Shown: piece after piece, positions 961 to 6,488 of the stretch
Position numbering within the stretch: position 1 is the stretch's first letter
How the letters are laid out: each line of letters opens with the position of its first letter
DNA from: a virus
Direction: 5' to 3' (one strand)
Virus record (IMG/VR): IMGVR_UViG_3300038466_000014
DNA: 64,000 nt
The notes under the pieces: generated by a model
Database searches by the model: none
What the model was told of the DNA's origin: nothing
What the model saw: the letters and a program-made list of their open reading frames with translations, nothing else
Position numbers and translations under genes: made by a program

Positions 961-1190
961 CTTGGATTTTAAACAAAAATCAACAAAAAAGAAGGTTTAG
1001 CGCAAGGGGAGACCGTAGTCCCCCATTTACTTGTTTTGATATATACTAATCTTTATGAAAGGAAAACAGAAATCTTCCGCCATAAACATAAGCTCCGTTT
1101 TCATCAATGGCATACCATGTATGGTAAAATATGCCCGGCGATTCACATAAATTAAATGACGATAAAAATTTACAGGTTGACCATAGATGT

Positions 1191-1229
1191 CGGGGTAGTA
1201 TATCCAAAGCCTCGGAATATACTACCCCG
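1191..1229. terminator. Long hairpin downstream of ORF 1235-1657
   Basis: 13-bp inverted repeat CGGGGTAGTATAT...ATATACTACCCCG with no clear U-tract. Confidence 0.4.
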
Positions 1230-1234
1230 TTAGC

Positions 1235-1657
1235 TCAAGGAAGCAGGGAGCGAACACGTTCGCTCCTCGCTTTTCCTGATTTCAACCGTCCCCAGCATCG
1301 CTTGCTGGGGAGTCGGTCGGTTGTGACAATTATTTCACCATTAGCAAGATCGAGCATCCCGGGAACCGGGTACTCGACCTTAACCCAGTGTCTGCCAGCT
1401 GTCCGGAGACGAATATCTCCGGGCCTCGCAAACCACTGCGAGCCATAAGAACATATCCCGAATGCCACGAACGTTTGTACTCCCGACTCGGCGAAAATGA
1501 CCCTATAGCAATCGGGGTCATCCTGTCTTTCCCGCCCTTCCTTCAGGGCACGTAAATCACTCAACAGATTGTCCATGCACCCCCATCCAAACGTCCCGGA
1601 TAGGGCCTCCATAATTTCAATTGTCGAATCCAGATTATACATCGTTACCCCTTTCAA
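1235..1657 (-). CDS. Hypothetical protein (GC-richer than flanks)
   Basis: 140-aa ORF downstream of a motif B copy. Confidence 0.6.
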   Translation of the reverse strand: MKGVTMYNLDSTIEIMEALSGTFGWGCMDNLLSDLRALKEGRERQDDPDCYRVIFAESGVQTFVAFGICSYGSQWFARPGDIRLRTAGRHWVKVEYPVPGMLDLANGEIIVTTDRLPSKRCWGRLKSGKARSERVRSLLP

Positions 1658-1720
1658 TCCTCAATACCGCAACTATCCCGGACCAATTCCAGAACATTAG
1701 CGATATTGTTATTTGTTATT

Positions 1721-1738: not shown

Positions 1739-4315
1739 CTATTCATTTTCTACATTTTCATCCAATGTTAAATCAATTCCTTTATCGATCAGCCAGTCTC
1801 CCATCTGAATGAATATAGAATCGGTATCTGTATACAAAAGATACTTTATTAATTTCTCTTTATACCCTTCGGCAAATTCAGGATCAAAGTTTATCTCATT
1901 TGTCTTCATATACTCAGAAACATGATATCCGAGAAACTTAATTACTTCCTGTCCGGTAAGAGTAATAGACATTGCCAAATCATAGTTAAAGAATCTGAAT
2001 CCGGAATTTGCCAATACTCCATATAGGGCATTAGCCAAAATTTTATAAGCTGTTTGAATATTGTTATAATATTTCTCTTGTTCTTTCTCTTTACTTTTAA
2101 CATATACCTTCATCATATCTTTATATGTAGTACGCGAATCCATCAGATATTTCAGAATACTGTAAAGAAATGATAGCTCCTCATCATGACCTTTATATAT
2201 ACATCCGTTTATGGTTATAATATAATTATTGTCTATAATCCATTTTTCAAATTCATTATATGTAAATTGTTTTTCAATCATATTGTATAAAGGATCTAAA
2301 TATACTATAAAGTTATCTTTGTATCTGGATTGAATTTTATGTATAAAGTAATATGCCACATCTGTATCTACTTTCGCTACAAATGTATTTGGGCCTATGT
2401 TACAGCTTCTGACAATAGACGGATATAGAGACGTAAAGTCAAAGTCTATAACCCATTTATGAATTCCTGGTATTGGTTTTCTCACCACTGCTCCAGGAAT
2501 CTTAAACTTTTCTCCGATCTTAGGTCTGTTTCTGCATACACAATTTGAATTTTTGGCGTAAGACAACACCAGAGGATCCAGCAATCCAGTAGTGGTTTCT
2601 GCGGATCCCCAAGATGACGCGCAAATACGAATCAATTCATATTGTAACGATATATGTCCAAGTTTCTTGTCCAGTTCGTATAGAAGATCTGTATCGGTCT
2701 GCGAGTATTCCACGAACTTATGTATATCCTGTTCATATACGTGATCCAAGGTTCCTTCATAGGCAACTTTATCTTTTGATATATTTACTTTGGCTATGTG
2801 GGATAATTTATATGTGGGTTCTTTTCCCTGAGCAAATTTCTTATATAAAAACATCATATCCGGTATAGCTATTCCCGCTATATATGCCTTTTTAATATTG
2901 TTTATATCAAAACTCGCTCTTCCGACAGGAGAAATCTCGTTGAATGATATATGATTCTTTCGCATCCGCATAAACAAGGTTGGTATATCGAATGTAGATG
3001 TATTCCATCCTGTCAATATATCGGGCAATTCCGATTTCAATACTTTTATAAAATATAATATTAATTCTTTTTCAGTATCGAAAATTTTAACATCTTTATT
3101 ATCTAAAGATACCCCTGAATTTTTTATAACCCCTATGTCGTATATCAGCACCTGTGTAGGAGTATCTCCCATTTTATAAGATATGGCGTTTATCGGCGCA
3201 AGAGCGGTTTCCGGTCTGGGAAATGATTTTTTATGATCGTTCCACACCTCCATATCCCAATACATAGTCTTAAGATTGTAATTCTTTTCTGATAAATTTC
3301 TGAGAGTTTTCTGATAAAAATAGTCTATGGAATGTCTAAGATTTTTTTGCACATCGAATTCATATACTCCTACCTCATCACTTGGTTTTGTATCGAACCG
3401 GACAACGGCGTTTTCAACTTTTTCGACAATATCTGAAAAATCGAATGGTTTCTTTCCCTCGTAAAAATATCCATGATCACTCGATAATAAGTAAAACTTT
3501 TTTTCTTTTGTTTTAGCATTAACAAATGTGAAACAAATCTCTCTGGTCGCCTTTAAATTTTGACAGTCAATATATATCATATCGGGATCAAACATCCATT
3601 CCGGATAATTGAAATAAGTTATTGAATTATTTACTATAGAGTCCGGGGATTTATATTGCATTATATATTTAACGGCACTCTTAAAATCATTTAGAAATGA
3701 TTGATAGTCCTTTGTAAGTTTGCCATCAGTAGTTCTTATACCGCCATTTCGTTTCACGTAGGATGGGTGTGTCGTAATCATCACATCTCTTCCTTCAAAC
3801 TTATGGATCGTCCCCCCTTCCTGTGTTATCTTTTTAACGGATATACCAAGGGCTTTTGCTGAAGAATTACCCATGGCTAAAATCAATTTAGGATTGGTTA
3901 TTTTTATAATCTCAAGAAGATTGTTTCTGCAAAATGTATACGCCTCCTCTGGAGGATTTGCAGTGATCCATTTTTTTCCTTTTTTAGATAAGTTCGAACA
4001 TAAACATACATTGGATATGAATAGATTCAATTTACTCATTCCTGATTCAGTTTCCGCCGATCTGTATATGCTTCCGGCTCCTCCGATCAAAGGTCTTCCG
4101 GATTGCACTTCCTCATAGGCTGGAGCTTCTCCAAGGACCAGAATGTCTATATCTCTAATATACTCTCTATTACATTCTCCAGGAACTATCGGTTGTTTAT
4201 ATAAAGGACAATCGAAACAATTGGTAAATGGGGACTTCGGATTACTAATATTTCCCTCCTTTATAAAACAATTAAAATTTGAAAATCCTGTCAGATCTTG
4301 GCACCAGTCCAACAT
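1739..4315 (-). CDS. polB: Family B DNA polymerase, N-terminal subunit, fused to family-4 uracil-DNA glycosylase (UDG-exo-palm/fingers)
   Basis: UDG motifs CFDC, GEAP, SNVCLC, HPS. Exo motifs WDMEV, GWN..FD, YSQTD. Pol motifs DFTSLYPS, KILANALYG, YTDTDS. Stops about 25 aa after motif C. Confidence 0.92.
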   Translation of the reverse strand: MLDWCQDLTGFSNFNCFIKEGNISNPKSPFTNCFDCPLYKQPIVPGECNREYIRDIDILVLGEAPAYEEVQSGRPLIGGAGSIYRSAETESGMSKLNLFISNVCLCSNLSKKGKKWITANPPEEAYTFCRNNLLEIIKITNPKLILAMGNSSAKALGISVKKITQEGGTIHKFEGRDVMITTHPSYVKRNGGIRTTDGKLTKDYQSFLNDFKSAVKYIMQYKSPDSIVNNSITYFNYPEWMFDPDMIYIDCQNLKATREICFTFVNAKTKEKKFYLLSSDHGYFYEGKKPFDFSDIVEKVENAVVRFDTKPSDEVGVYEFDVQKNLRHSIDYFYQKTLRNLSEKNYNLKTMYWDMEVWNDHKKSFPRPETALAPINAISYKMGDTPTQVLIYDIGVIKNSGVSLDNKDVKIFDTEKELILYFIKVLKSELPDILTGWNTSTFDIPTLFMRMRKNHISFNEISPVGRASFDINNIKKAYIAGIAIPDMMFLYKKFAQGKEPTYKLSHIAKVNISKDKVAYEGTLDHVYEQDIHKFVEYSQTDTDLLYELDKKLGHISLQYELIRICASSWGSAETTTGLLDPLVLSYAKNSNCVCRNRPKIGEKFKIPGAVVRKPIPGIHKWVIDFDFTSLYPSIVRSCNIGPNTFVAKVDTDVAYYFIHKIQSRYKDNFIVYLDPLYNMIEKQFTYNEFEKWIIDNNYIITINGCIYKGHDEELSFLYSILKYLMDSRTTYKDMMKVYVKSKEKEQEKYYNNIQTAYKILANALYGVLANSGFRFFNYDLAMSITLTGQEVIKFLGYHVSEYMKTNEINFDPEFAEGYKEKLIKYLLYTDTDSIFIQMGDWLIDKGIDLTLDENVENE

Positions 4316-5060
4316 CCTCAGACAGCGGTTTTAAGAAATTGGATATACGTATATCCCAGGAAAATTCAATCATCTTATCAATATCTATTATGTAATAACT
4401 CGGAAGAAATTCCTCTTCGTATGGCATAGCAATAGCATTTCCAATTTTAATTCCTTCATCTATTAATTTCTTAATCCTGTCAGGAGATTTCATATAGTTA
4501 ATACCCTCAATATTAAACATATATCCTTTAGTACCTTGTTCGAAATATGGATATTCCAGTTTATTCCATAATTTCATACTTCTAATATGCATCGTCTGTG
4601 TTTTGTACTCATCATCATTTTTATTAAAATGGACAGGACGGGCAGCCTTCTTACTTCCTTCCAAAATACCAGTGATAAGTATTTCACGAGAGTCTGTTAT
4701 GAATTTAGCAATCTTTTTAAAATCTATATAGTATTCTCTAACAAGCATATCGAGTAACATAGACAATCTTTCTTTAGTAAATTCGGGATAATCCGATCTC
4801 CTAACCTCAATACCTTTATTCTCCATTTTATCCACAGGATCTTTTTCTTTATTTATGATGTGCAACGAATATTTCTTTCCCACTCCTGGGAAATATCCGG
4901 TATCTGCGACTAATTCCTGTTTGGCGTCAAAAAGATTGAACTTATCTTTGATATTATGTTTTCTGCCAAACTCCAGCGCTATAGGTACAATCGCGTTGGC
5001 TTTTATATTTTCAGCCTCTTTTAAAATAAGCGCAACGAGGTCTTCTTTTTTGATGCTCAT
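4272..5060 (-). CDS. polB: Family B DNA polymerase, C-terminal subunit (palm end and thumb)
   Basis: KQELVAD..GKKYS and KGIEVRRSDYPEFTK are the PolB motifs that follow motif C and are missing from 1739-4315. Confidence 0.85.
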   Translation of the reverse strand: MSIKKEDLVALILKEAENIKANAIVPIALEFGRKHNIKDKFNLFDAKQELVADTGYFPGVGKKYSLHIINKEKDPVDKMENKGIEVRRSDYPEFTKERLSMLLDMLVREYYIDFKKIAKFITDSREILITGILEGSKKAARPVHFNKNDDEYKTQTMHIRSMKLWNKLEYPYFEQGTKGYMFNIEGINYMKSPDRIKKLIDEGIKIGNAIAMPYEEEFLPSYYIIDIDKMIEFSWDIRISNFLKPLSEDVGLVPRSDRIFKF

Positions 5061-5200
5061 CGGGCACCGCCCGATGATTCCAGTTGAACCGCCTTTTCGG
5101 AACTCTGGTTTGGCGGACCACCAATAGACCGCACGGCTGAAACACTGTGTCCAACCGTTTGCTCATAGAGAAACCACCCATTGGCAGAAACATTAAAGGC
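5050..5200 (-). ncRNA. Predicted TnpB omegaRNA (right-end RNA); 5' limit approximate
   Basis: Inferred from established IS605 biology: the scaffold overlaps the tnpB 3' end and right end. The guide would be the flank AAAAGAAGACCTCGTTGCG. Confidence 0.5.
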
Positions 5201-6049
5201 CGCGTTTGAGTCTCTATGGTCAAAGTGAGAACATGAACATTTGTAGTTCTTTCCGTTTGGTTTGTTGATACTTCCGCACCTTGAGCAAACCTGACTTGTA
5301 TAAGCAGGATTTACGAAGAAGATTGGTATGCCAAGCAAAGATGCTTTGTATTTGATAAAGGTTTCCAAAGCAAAACGATGTGATTTGGCATAGTCAACAA
5401 CGGAACGACTCACTTTATGATTGATATCTTTAACTCTGTTTGACTGTTTACTTCTGATTTTCTTTAAAGCATCTTTAGCACCTTTCTTTTGTAAGTTCTT
5501 TCTTCTATTGCGGAAACTTTTAGTTATTCCAGACACATCTGGACCTAACTTCCTAACCTTTCCAGACATAACATCCGCACAAACCACAACATTCTCCACA
5601 CTGTTTCTATCAACTCCAAGAAATCCTTGAATTTTCTGTTCTTGTAAAACAGGAGTGTTGTAAGAGTAGGATATAAACCATTGCCCATTTCTTTTGAAAA
5701 ACTCTGCCTGTCTAATAAAACCAGAAATGGTTTTAGGAAATACAACAGGCAAAATAGATTTTTTGAAGAAGGCTGGGATTCGAATACCACCATCTACAAT
5801 CTTTACTTGTTTTCCTTTATCACCGCAAACAGGTAAAACAAGATTTTTGACCTGCTTGATCTTTTTGTTTCTCTGATATTTAGAAATAAGACTTTTAGCA
5901 AGAACACAAGGTATCTCTTTGTAATATTTAGAAGAAGATTTAGTTCTGTCTTCTATCATTCTGTTTACACAAACAGAAGCTTTTTGGTATAACTCGTCCA
6001 AAATAGGAGTAAGATTGTGAGGTATAACGACCTTAAAAGTAAGACACAT
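5057..6049 (-). CDS. tnpB: TnpB RNA-guided nuclease homologue, probably inactive
   Basis: RuvC-I GVDRN, Zn finger TSQVCSRCG..CSC and RuvC-III HRDSNAAFN present. The RuvC-II (IVLEDL-type) segment is not seen between AKSHR and LETFIKYKA. Likely start ATG 6049; frame is open to 6127. Confidence 0.88.
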   Translation of the reverse strand: MCLTFKVVIPHNLTPILDELYQKASVCVNRMIEDRTKSSSKYYKEIPCVLAKSLISKYQRNKKIKQVKNLVLPVCGDKGKQVKIVDGGIRIPAFFKKSILPVVFPKTISGFIRQAEFFKRNGQWFISYSYNTPVLQEQKIQGFLGVDRNSVENVVVCADVMSGKVRKLGPDVSGITKSFRNRRKNLQKKGAKDALKKIRSKQSNRVKDINHKVSRSVVDYAKSHRFALETFIKYKASLLGIPIFFVNPAYTSQVCSRCGSINKPNGKNYKCSCSHFDHRDSNAAFNVSANGWFLYEQTVGHSVSAVRSIGGPPNQSSEKAVQLESSGGAR

Positions 6050-6415
6050 TGTAAGTTCTTTCTCGTATACCATGTTGTGTTTGTAACCAAGTTTCGCTAT
6101 AAAATTTTCCATCAACACATTCTCCAAGATTTGATTTTAACTCTTCCAGAAATGGCTAAACAAATGTCTGTAAATATTTCTGAAATAAACGGTGAAGAAG
6201 ACCACATACATTTTCTTTTGGAAACAACACCACAAGACAATCTTGGTGGTGTTATAGGGGCACTAAAAGCACGGTCTTCTTCGTATCTACACGACAAATA
6301 TATCTTTCCATATTTGGGAAAACATTCCAGAACTCTTTGGTCTTCTGGGTATTTTATAGTATCCACTGGCGGTGCTCCTTTAGATGTTATTAAAAAGTAT
6401 ATCCAAAACCAATAA
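6017..6415 (+). CDS. tnpA: IS200/IS605 Y1 HUH transposase
   Basis: YHVVFVTKFR, HUH motif DHIHFL, LWSSGYF and catalytic YIQNQ. AGGAG SD before the GTG start. Confidence 0.93.
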   Translation: MRYNDLKSKTHCKFFLVYHVVFVTKFRYKIFHQHILQDLILTLPEMAKQMSVNISEINGEEDHIHFLLETTPQDNLGGVIGALKARSSSYLHDKYIFPYLGKHSRTLWSSGYFIVSTGGAPLDVIKKYIQNQ

Positions 6416-6488
6416 TAAGTATTAAATCCTACTTGTCAAGAGCCTAACCCCGAACACCGTTCGGGGATTGCGGCTCTAATACTGTTGA

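Follow-up and report, generated by a model that had tools for sequence, protein, structure and literature searches.

The right end of IS608 finishes in TCAA, and so does that of the IS200/IS605-type element described here, which lies in a 64,000-nucleotide stretch of viral DNA (IMG/VR record IMGVR_UViG_3300038466_000014; hereafter the window). Translation of neighbouring genes can be coupled by termination-reinitiation or by initiation that depends on upstream translation (PMC6728339, PMC12548453), and both reinitiation at ATGA overlaps and the opening of occluded starts by upstream translation are established routes (PMC6728339). Among the relatives of the transposon protein TnpB, the TldRs form clades of inactivated proteins that are found outside transposons, with fliC and oppF as new gene partners and with guides directed against promoters (PMC10705468). 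In the window, the element appears to have inserted on the start codon of a gene encoding the thumb of a split DNA polymerase (pol-C), its right end very likely provides the start codon that is used now, and its tnpB gene has lost the RuvC-II segment in frame. The explanation that we prefer, with chances that we regard as even when it is taken as a whole, is a recently crippled IS200/IS605 copy on the start of an essential gene, with the tnpB frame feeding the translation of pol-C.

On the minus strand, a 221-aa open reading frame (ORF; 7154-6489) is followed by the element (6484-5050), by pol-C and by pol-N, which encodes the remainder of the polymerase. The element itself is arranged as left end, tnpA on the opposite strand, tnpB, omega-RNA scaffold and right end, and it has the ends of the IS200/IS605 group, with subterminal hairpins at both sides, no inverted terminal repeats and no target duplication. 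Its boundaries were drawn from 6-20 independent insertions. The features that bear on the start of pol-C are the following.

5050..6484, minus strand: IS200/IS605-type element of 1,435 bp (1,519-1,520 bp if undeleted), delimited by homology boundaries and independent insertions
6485..6488, minus strand: position of the target motif at the left flank, TCAA here and TGAA in relatives, mostly as ribosome-binding site and ATGAA, from comparison of left flanks
5057..5077, minus strand: right-end hairpin of 9 bp with a GGT loop, from the centroid fold, invariant in relatives
4272..5060, minus strand: pol-C, polymerase thumb gene, 262 aa, matching positions 281-350 of the PF00136 profile and stand-alone homologues
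1739..4315, minus strand: pol-N, uracil-DNA glycosylase (UDG)-exonuclease-palm part, 858 aa, matching PF03167, PF03104 and PF00136 positions 18-238

Homology at the right end stops after ...ATGAGCATCAA, at window position 5050, and six independent insertions are homologous through ...GGTGCCCGATGAGCATCAA and unrelated beyond. As the boundary lies at TCAA (5050), ATG-AGC-ATC-AA belongs to the element, and codons 1-3 of pol-C together with two bases of codon 4 (M-S-I-K) are transposon sequence. On the left side, homology among the independent insertions begins just after T(G/C)AA, and the left flanks of relatives show a ribosome-binding site, then ATGAA, then the element (GAGGCGCTAAATGAA/C, AGGAGTATAACTATGAA/C and AGGAGGTTACTTATAAATGAA/C, the slash marking the junction). 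When the two flanks are joined they read ATG-AAx-..., in the frame of the element's own ATG-AGC-ATC-AAx, and an insertion in codon 2 thus restores the start. Judging from these flanks, the family would thus land inside codon 2 of genes that begin with ATGAA and return a start codon to them, at the cost of two extra residues.

In the same way, the window element appears to have landed where a stand-alone thumb gene originally had its ATGAA start. A GGAGGT located 4-5 nt upstream of 6485-6488 represents the vestigial ribosome site of the thumb gene, whose ATG is now ATC. The empty site, GGAGGTGTAATGAA then AAAAGAAGACC, can be rebuilt as GGAGGT-GTA-AT(G)AA/AAAAGAAGAC, which is translated as M-K-K-E-D-L-V-A-L-I-L-K-E, and eight stand-alone thumb homologues (263-270 aa, 38-50% identity) start exactly at this rebuilt N-terminus of pol-C. 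Among in-frame ATG, GTG and TTG codons, the element's ATG stands alone before residue 79 and is for this reason the only usable start of pol-C. The wider set of insertions points in the same direction: of 20 distinct sites, 16 have the longest open frame beyond the right end in the frame of the ATG (binomial p = 2.5e-5 versus one third), and at 13 of the 20 the ORF in this frame spans 77-348 codons or runs off the contig end. We consider it very likely that the element's ATG is the real start of pol-C. Neither this ATG nor the first three "polymerase" codons had been recognized as element-borne in a preliminary description of the locus made from the sequence alone, which did not mention the insertion on the ATGAA of the thumb gene either. 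The viral contigs contained no exact match to the empty sites of three relatives, and no transposon-free homologue of a 192-aa neighbour gene was found. Scans of metagenome and genome collections with a 16-mer of the right end gave mostly chance matches, in GC-rich genomes, and 2 extra true sites.

The product of pol-N comprises the UDG domain, the 3'-5' exonuclease and the palm up to YTDTDS, and pol-C and pol-N are two parts of one split UDG-family B DNA polymerase in which the thumb is separately encoded. pol-C lies upstream of pol-N with a 44-nt overlap, and the split falls after motif C. The same split was found in three related phages, in both gene orders and with 1-3 genes between the halves; the thumb gene comes first in L031 and L034, with 2-3 genes between, and second in L033. 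Because related phages with the same split carry stand-alone thumb genes in both gene orders, the split is older than the insertion, and the element-free phages among them rule out the insertion sequence as its cause. An IStron-like or trans-splicing arrangement was likewise rejected, as there were 0 Rfam matches and the sequence after pol-N does not resemble a left end. As a separate observation, a NUMOD3 endonuclease gene directly follows the thumb gene of L033.

The second peculiarity of the locus concerns tnpB, whose 3' part overlaps the omega-RNA scaffold.

5057..6112 (alternative start 6049), minus strand: tnpB, 351 aa, with a 28-residue in-frame deletion of RuvC-II, PF07282
5369/5368, minus strand: deletion junction GCT/TTG, 84 nt lost, corresponding to reference element positions 1118-1201
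5050..5218, minus strand: omega-RNA scaffold overlapping the tnpB 3' end, from the consensus fold of 10 copies

The gene caller places the tnpB start at 6112 (351 aa), the preliminary description at 6049; residues 1-17 are unstructured and poorly conserved. PF07282, the TNB domain model, is the sole Pfam match (E 2e-18), and Foldseek matched the protein with probability 1.0 to the Cas12f/TnpB structures 8dzj, 8h1j and 8exa. Across the junction the minus-strand ORF reads ...SRSVVDYAKSHRFALETFIKYKASLLG..., so that VVDYAKSHR is directly joined to FALETFIKYKA, as had been described before. Alignment with 11 relatives, the nearest of which is 92% identical outside the gap, gave a single clean gap of 28 residues (84 nt) between HR(L/S)A and LETFIKYKA, and identified the removed segment as IVLEDLGKISKKGKAKRYVQKSQWSFYQ. 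The IVLEDL strand, which bears the RuvC-II Glu, lies in this segment together with half of the following helix, and in the family profile "aivlEDL" is aligned to the RuvC-II segment of solved Cas12f chains ("...iqmEDL..."). The gap is unique to the window protein, the other 106 of 107 homologues of at least 340 aa having kept the segment. The RuvC-I Asp (GVDRN, 5609-5611), the CxxC...CxC zinc finger (5231-5287) and the RuvC-III Asp (HRDSN, 5210-5212) were all located in the sequence, in agreement with the preliminary description, and what the window TnpB does not have is a complete RuvC D-E-D triad on an intact RNase H-like core. Repeat slippage was rejected as the cause of the deletion, since there is neither microhomology nor a flanking repeat at the junction. 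No public sequencing run contained more than 12% of the sampled words of the window.

AlphaFold2 was run on the window protein and on an intact control, P0002, with the same 54-sequence alignment. For the window protein, the predicted template modelling score (pTM) was 0.52 and the predicted local distance difference test (pLDDT) was >90 at residues 20-155 and <50 at residues 246-252, and strands beta4 and beta5, which flank the lost segment, were both absent from the model. For P0002, the pTM was 0.69, and the model contained the strand 247-252 (AIVLED), the helix 272-288 and the strand 292-295. In both models a C-terminal tail of about 30 residues, which is the translated omega-RNA scaffold, was unstructured. 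On the alignment, supported by these predictions, the window TnpB is in all probability a dead nuclease, as had been proposed, and its RuvC half is probably unstable. Taken by itself, the deletion inactivates a member of a known family in an ordinary way.

The stop codon of tnpB (TGA, 5057-5059) overlaps the ATG of pol-C (5058-5060) in an ATGA (5057-5060), as previously noted, and both codons are contained in the 3' arm of the right-end hairpin, TCATCGGGC-GGT-GCCCGATGA. The earlier location of the ATG in this hairpin was correct, and only the size given, 8 bp, had to be changed: the stem has 9 pairs, because a G-to-A change turns the G-U pair of the family into A-U. The centroid fold of a 71-nt stretch consists of the right-end stem alone (-15.3 kcal/mol). 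When positions -30..+18 were folded for every ATG-initiated window ORF of 120 aa or more (67 in all), the start of pol-C had the most stable fold of all (-16.2 versus a median of -3.7 kcal/mol), and the unpaired probability of its ATG was 0.01, compared to a median of 0.51. The sole Shine-Dalgarno-like run, GGCGGU, sits inside the stem-loop (duplex -7.1 kcal/mol). The two genes therefore show two features of a coupled pair, namely an overlapping stop and start, and a start occluded by a structure that involves the upstream ORF.

The family of related elements shows the same arrangement. The cargo ORF always stops at ATGA, in the TnpB lineage of the window, in two further TnpB lineages, in contig L025 and in contigs L017 and L024. 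The two further lineages share with the window element the near-identical last 30-34 nt of the right end; the L029 and L030 proteins are 27-28% identical to the window TnpB, the L143 sequence has no blastn match outside the right end, and the L029 element also has the same left end as that of the window. In L025 another ORF takes the place of tnpB; it continues in frame into the final 75 nt of the right end and stops at ATGA, and to judge from its CxxC pairs its product is possibly HNH-like. Finally, a non-autonomous derivative of 565 bp is located after ATGATGAA and ahead of a 348-aa in-frame gene, and its 166-aa TnpB remnant again ends at ATGA. From these comparisons the transposon ends behave as a module that seems to be swapped between cargo genes.

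L029 6127-7231, L030 2709-3804 and L143 129-1262: TnpB genes with the shared right end
L025 10303-10929, minus strand: cargo replacing tnpB, 208-codon ORF, no Pfam match, CxxC pairs
L024 about 4394-4958 (also L017): 565-bp non-autonomous derivative, left-end hairpin and right end kept
L021 about 1085-1390: 306-bp non-autonomous derivative, left-end hairpin and right end kept

Translational coupling of pol-C to tnpB is thus plausible and fits the design of the whole family, and we lean slightly towards a substantial dependence of pol-C translation on that of tnpB. The family inserts after (A)TGAA, and its right end, ...GCCCGATGAGCATCAA, re-creates an ATG and two and two-thirds codons in frame, M-S-I being all that is added to the host protein; the host gene in the present case encodes the thumb subunit of the split UDG-family B DNA polymerase. 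With the 84-bp deletion, TnpB has lost its central RuvC strand and catalytic Glu along with half of the helix that follows, which very probably killed the nuclease, but the tnpB frame still reaches the TGA of the ATGA, with the thumb start buried in a stem of about -15 kcal/mol and no Shine-Dalgarno sequence free. Ribosomes ending tnpB would most likely melt the stem and then re-initiate or admit a new 30S subunit. A frameshift in tnpB would consequently starve the phage of its polymerase thumb, and only frame-preserving lesions would survive.

Several observations weigh against this explanation. The hairpin and the open tail are needed anyway for recognition by TnpA and for the omega-RNA stem, and because the right-end stem is at the same time the TnpA hairpin and the 3' stem of the omega-RNA, its conservation alone is no evidence for coupling. 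The GGCGGU run could possibly allow some direct initiation at pol-C, and at 7 of the 20 sites the right end is followed only by short in-frame ORFs. The deletion is known from a metagenome-assembled contig alone, and it is a single event that under neutrality would be in frame by chance in 1/3 of cases. The preliminary description had proposed that the frame was kept because of coupling; with an occluded sole start and a family-wide ATGA, coupling stands as a reasonable mechanism, whereas selection for the frame is not shown by one deletion with a chance of 1/3. A second frame-preserving lesion, the remnant in L017/L024, brings the cases to two in total, and we put the possibility that the in-frame nature of the deletion reflects a coupling constraint slightly below an even chance.

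The remaining parts of the element and its predicted guide also enter into the choice between explanations.

6448..6466, minus strand: left-end subterminal hairpin CCCCGAA-CGGTG-TTCGGGG, read from the sequence, conserved in relatives
6412..6439, minus strand: sigma-70-like promoter TTGACA-16-TATTAT, 11/12 match in a consensus scan, bases conserved in relatives
6017..6415, plus strand: tnpA, Y1 HUH transposase, 132 aa, GTG start, PF01797 (E 1.6e-29)
5030..5049, minus strand: predicted omega-RNA guide segment, corresponding to thumb-gene codons 4-10, directly 3' of the right end

tnpA is 89-96% identical to its relatives and has the HIH (HUH motif) and the Tyr of SGYF. The promoter-like sequence, a consensus match only, points inward, antisense to tnpA and toward tnpB and pol-C. 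In the consensus fold of the omega-RNA (10 copies), 16 of the 53 pairs show compensatory changes, and the window copy is structurally intact. By analogy with ISDra2-type TnpB, the segment 5049-5030 is expected to act as guide; searching the 64-kb window with up to 3 mismatches allowed gave no further match to it. The window holds a single copy of the right end, and a second, intact copy of the element may exist elsewhere in the 180-kb genome.

Neutral decay is the competing explanation that survives best. It assumes a random in-frame hit on a dispensable selfish gene, pol-C being translated independently of tnpB translation through breathing of the stem, the GGCGGU run or the helicase activity of other ribosomes. 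It agrees with the singleton character of the deletion, with the in-frame prior of 1/3 and with the Shine-Dalgarno-like duplex of -7.1 kcal/mol, and slight wear is visible elsewhere in the element: TCAA has taken the place of TGAA in the target motif, the start codon of tnpA is GTG and not the ATG of its relatives, and residue 99 of TnpA shows a private Trp-to-Leu change, Trp being kept in 8 relatives. However, the start of pol-C is the most occluded in the window, and all cargo ORFs of the family, even when 27% identical or truncated, stop at ATGA. Nor is there any sign that constraint on tnpB has been relaxed. The window protein has 2 private substitutions at columns conserved to at least 95%, the family median being also 2. 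The ratio of nonsynonymous to synonymous substitution rates (dN/dS) lies at 0.09-0.18 between the window copy and intact ones, as it does when intact copies are compared with each other. For the window's own branch, the pairwise values give a dS of ~0.3 and a dN/dS of ~0.09, and nearly all of this branch therefore evolved under purifying selection. Neither the private changes nor the pairwise dN/dS gave any sign of relaxed selection after the deletion, a result that fits a very recent deletion as well as a shortened ORF that remains under constraint and cannot separate the two. On this evidence we regard neutral decay as unlikely, and retain the coupling of pol-C to the tnpB frame as the preferred explanation.

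A different possibility is that the deletion is adaptive for the phage, which would have captured the transposon as a fixed leader cistron for the thumb gene. Without its RuvC core, TnpB might no longer process or occupy the omega-RNA in the tnpB-polC transcript, which would free thumb translation; the frame, the hairpin and the element's ATG would be retained as the only initiation device of the thumb gene, and the element would stay fixed at its site owing to the G-to-C change in the neighbouring target motif. We consider this distinctly improbable.

More doubtful still is a domesticated, TldR-like RNA-guided binder, in which the WED/REC half and the omega-RNA would be kept and DNA bound uncut, for example at the ATGAA-plus-guide site of transposon-free rival phages or at another target. 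The N-terminal half of TnpB is predicted with pLDDT >90, the omega-RNA scaffold is intact, dN/dS is low, and nuclease-dead TnpB relatives work in this manner (PMC10705468). A very recent deletion would account for the low dN/dS just as well, however, and the deletion occurs in 1/107 homologues and marks no clade. tnpA and both ends are all present, with no loss of the transposon context, and the guide is the native flank, that is, the adjacent pol-C codons, with no other match in the 64 kb at up to 3 mismatches. Moreover, a core strand was deleted instead of the site being point-mutated, and the RuvC/TNB part is poorly predicted. The RNA-guided regulatory role that the preliminary description had also considered is therefore not upheld.

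An assembly artefact or a minority variant, in a phage population with an intact tnpB, is very improbable, since the contig is indeed metagenome-assembled but the deletion is a clean 84-nt block in unique sequence with no misleading repeat at the junction, and the right end is single-copy in the window. Continued nuclease activity, with a replacement catalytic Glu supplied by ALET, is hardly credible: this Glu does follow by two residues the Ala at which the IVLED strand began, but the alignment places it at the nearly invariant Glu of QLETF (E278 of P0002), 26 residues past the catalytic E252 of P0002, the strand with the catalytic Glu is gone and the next one is not predicted either, so that the alignment to the catalytic residue singled out beforehand as speaking against nuclease loss was not found.

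The tnpB gene comes, according to the protein database, from a contig of 180,230 bases, and the source is a large uncultured phage. Genes for a clamp loader, a primase, a DnaB-type helicase and a virion protein are found in the neighbourhood, and no close phage relative was detected by DNA or by thumb protein in the phage and viral collections searched. Directly after the polymerase gene lies a GC-rich island (1180-1700, minus strand; 54% GC versus ~32%), which folds with -221 kcal/mol (z = -7.4 versus shuffles) and has two strong hairpins at its end. Even at an E-value of 1 Rfam gave no match, and the 140-aa ORF of the island is without PHROG match; a large structured RNA or an acquired gene is possible. 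The phage contigs that carry the related elements are rich in other selfish DNA, including inteins in a RecA gene (a LAGLIDADG intein) and in a ClpB-like AAA gene.

L001 4316-6478 and L006 8863-11140: intein-bearing genes in contigs with related elements

If pol-C does need ribosomes to read through tnpB, an essential phage replication protein would be held hostage by a selfish reading frame. Such dependence would offer a transposon a simple defence against deletion or degradation, and would explain why every cargo ORF in the family ends at ATGA. The crippled copy would then represent a natural experiment in which the nuclease is gone and the frame is kept, and which separates the enzymatic role of TnpB from the role of being translated. 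For annotation, it implies that a start that looks operon-coupled after tnpB can be owned by the transposon. In the literature searched, no description of an IS605 right end that rebuilds a start codon, or of a deletion of this type, was found, the library being limited and the result no proof of novelty.

With IS608 and ISDra2, the window element has in common the Y1 HUH TnpA, the zinc-finger TnpB, the subterminal hairpins at both ends, the insertion 3' of a tetranucleotide without target duplication, and an omega-RNA scaffold that overlaps the tnpB 3' end with a guide read from the flank. In contrast to them, its target motif is embedded in start codons (ATGAA), its right end has an in-frame ATG overlapping the tnpB stop, its tnpB ORF runs on through the whole omega-RNA as far as the ATGA, which adds an unstructured tail of about 30 aa, and the window copy has no RuvC-II. 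As to the polymerase, gp43 is split in some T4-like phages, such as Aeromonas phage Aeh1 with 43A/43B. As in these phages, a family B polymerase is encoded as two genes cut after palm motif C, but the present N-terminal part carries a fused UDG domain, and the thumb gene precedes the catalytic one.

With the TldRs, the window protein shares the descent from TnpB, the destroyed RuvC site and a seemingly intact RNA-binding half (PMC10705468). It differs from them in being a single copy within a complete transposon, with its own flank as guide, and in having lost a core strand, whereas TldRs have mutated active-site residues or a trimmed C-terminus. Similarly, the 4-nt overlap and a start locked in a structure with the end of the upstream ORF are known from ATGA-coupled genes (PMC6728339, PMC12548453), whereas here the upstream cistron is a selfish transposon gene, the downstream one is an essential phage gene, and the occluding stem doubles as transposase recognition hairpin and guide-RNA stem. 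What is unusual is thus the setting, in which the right end of a transposon would serve as the start site of an essential polymerase subunit.

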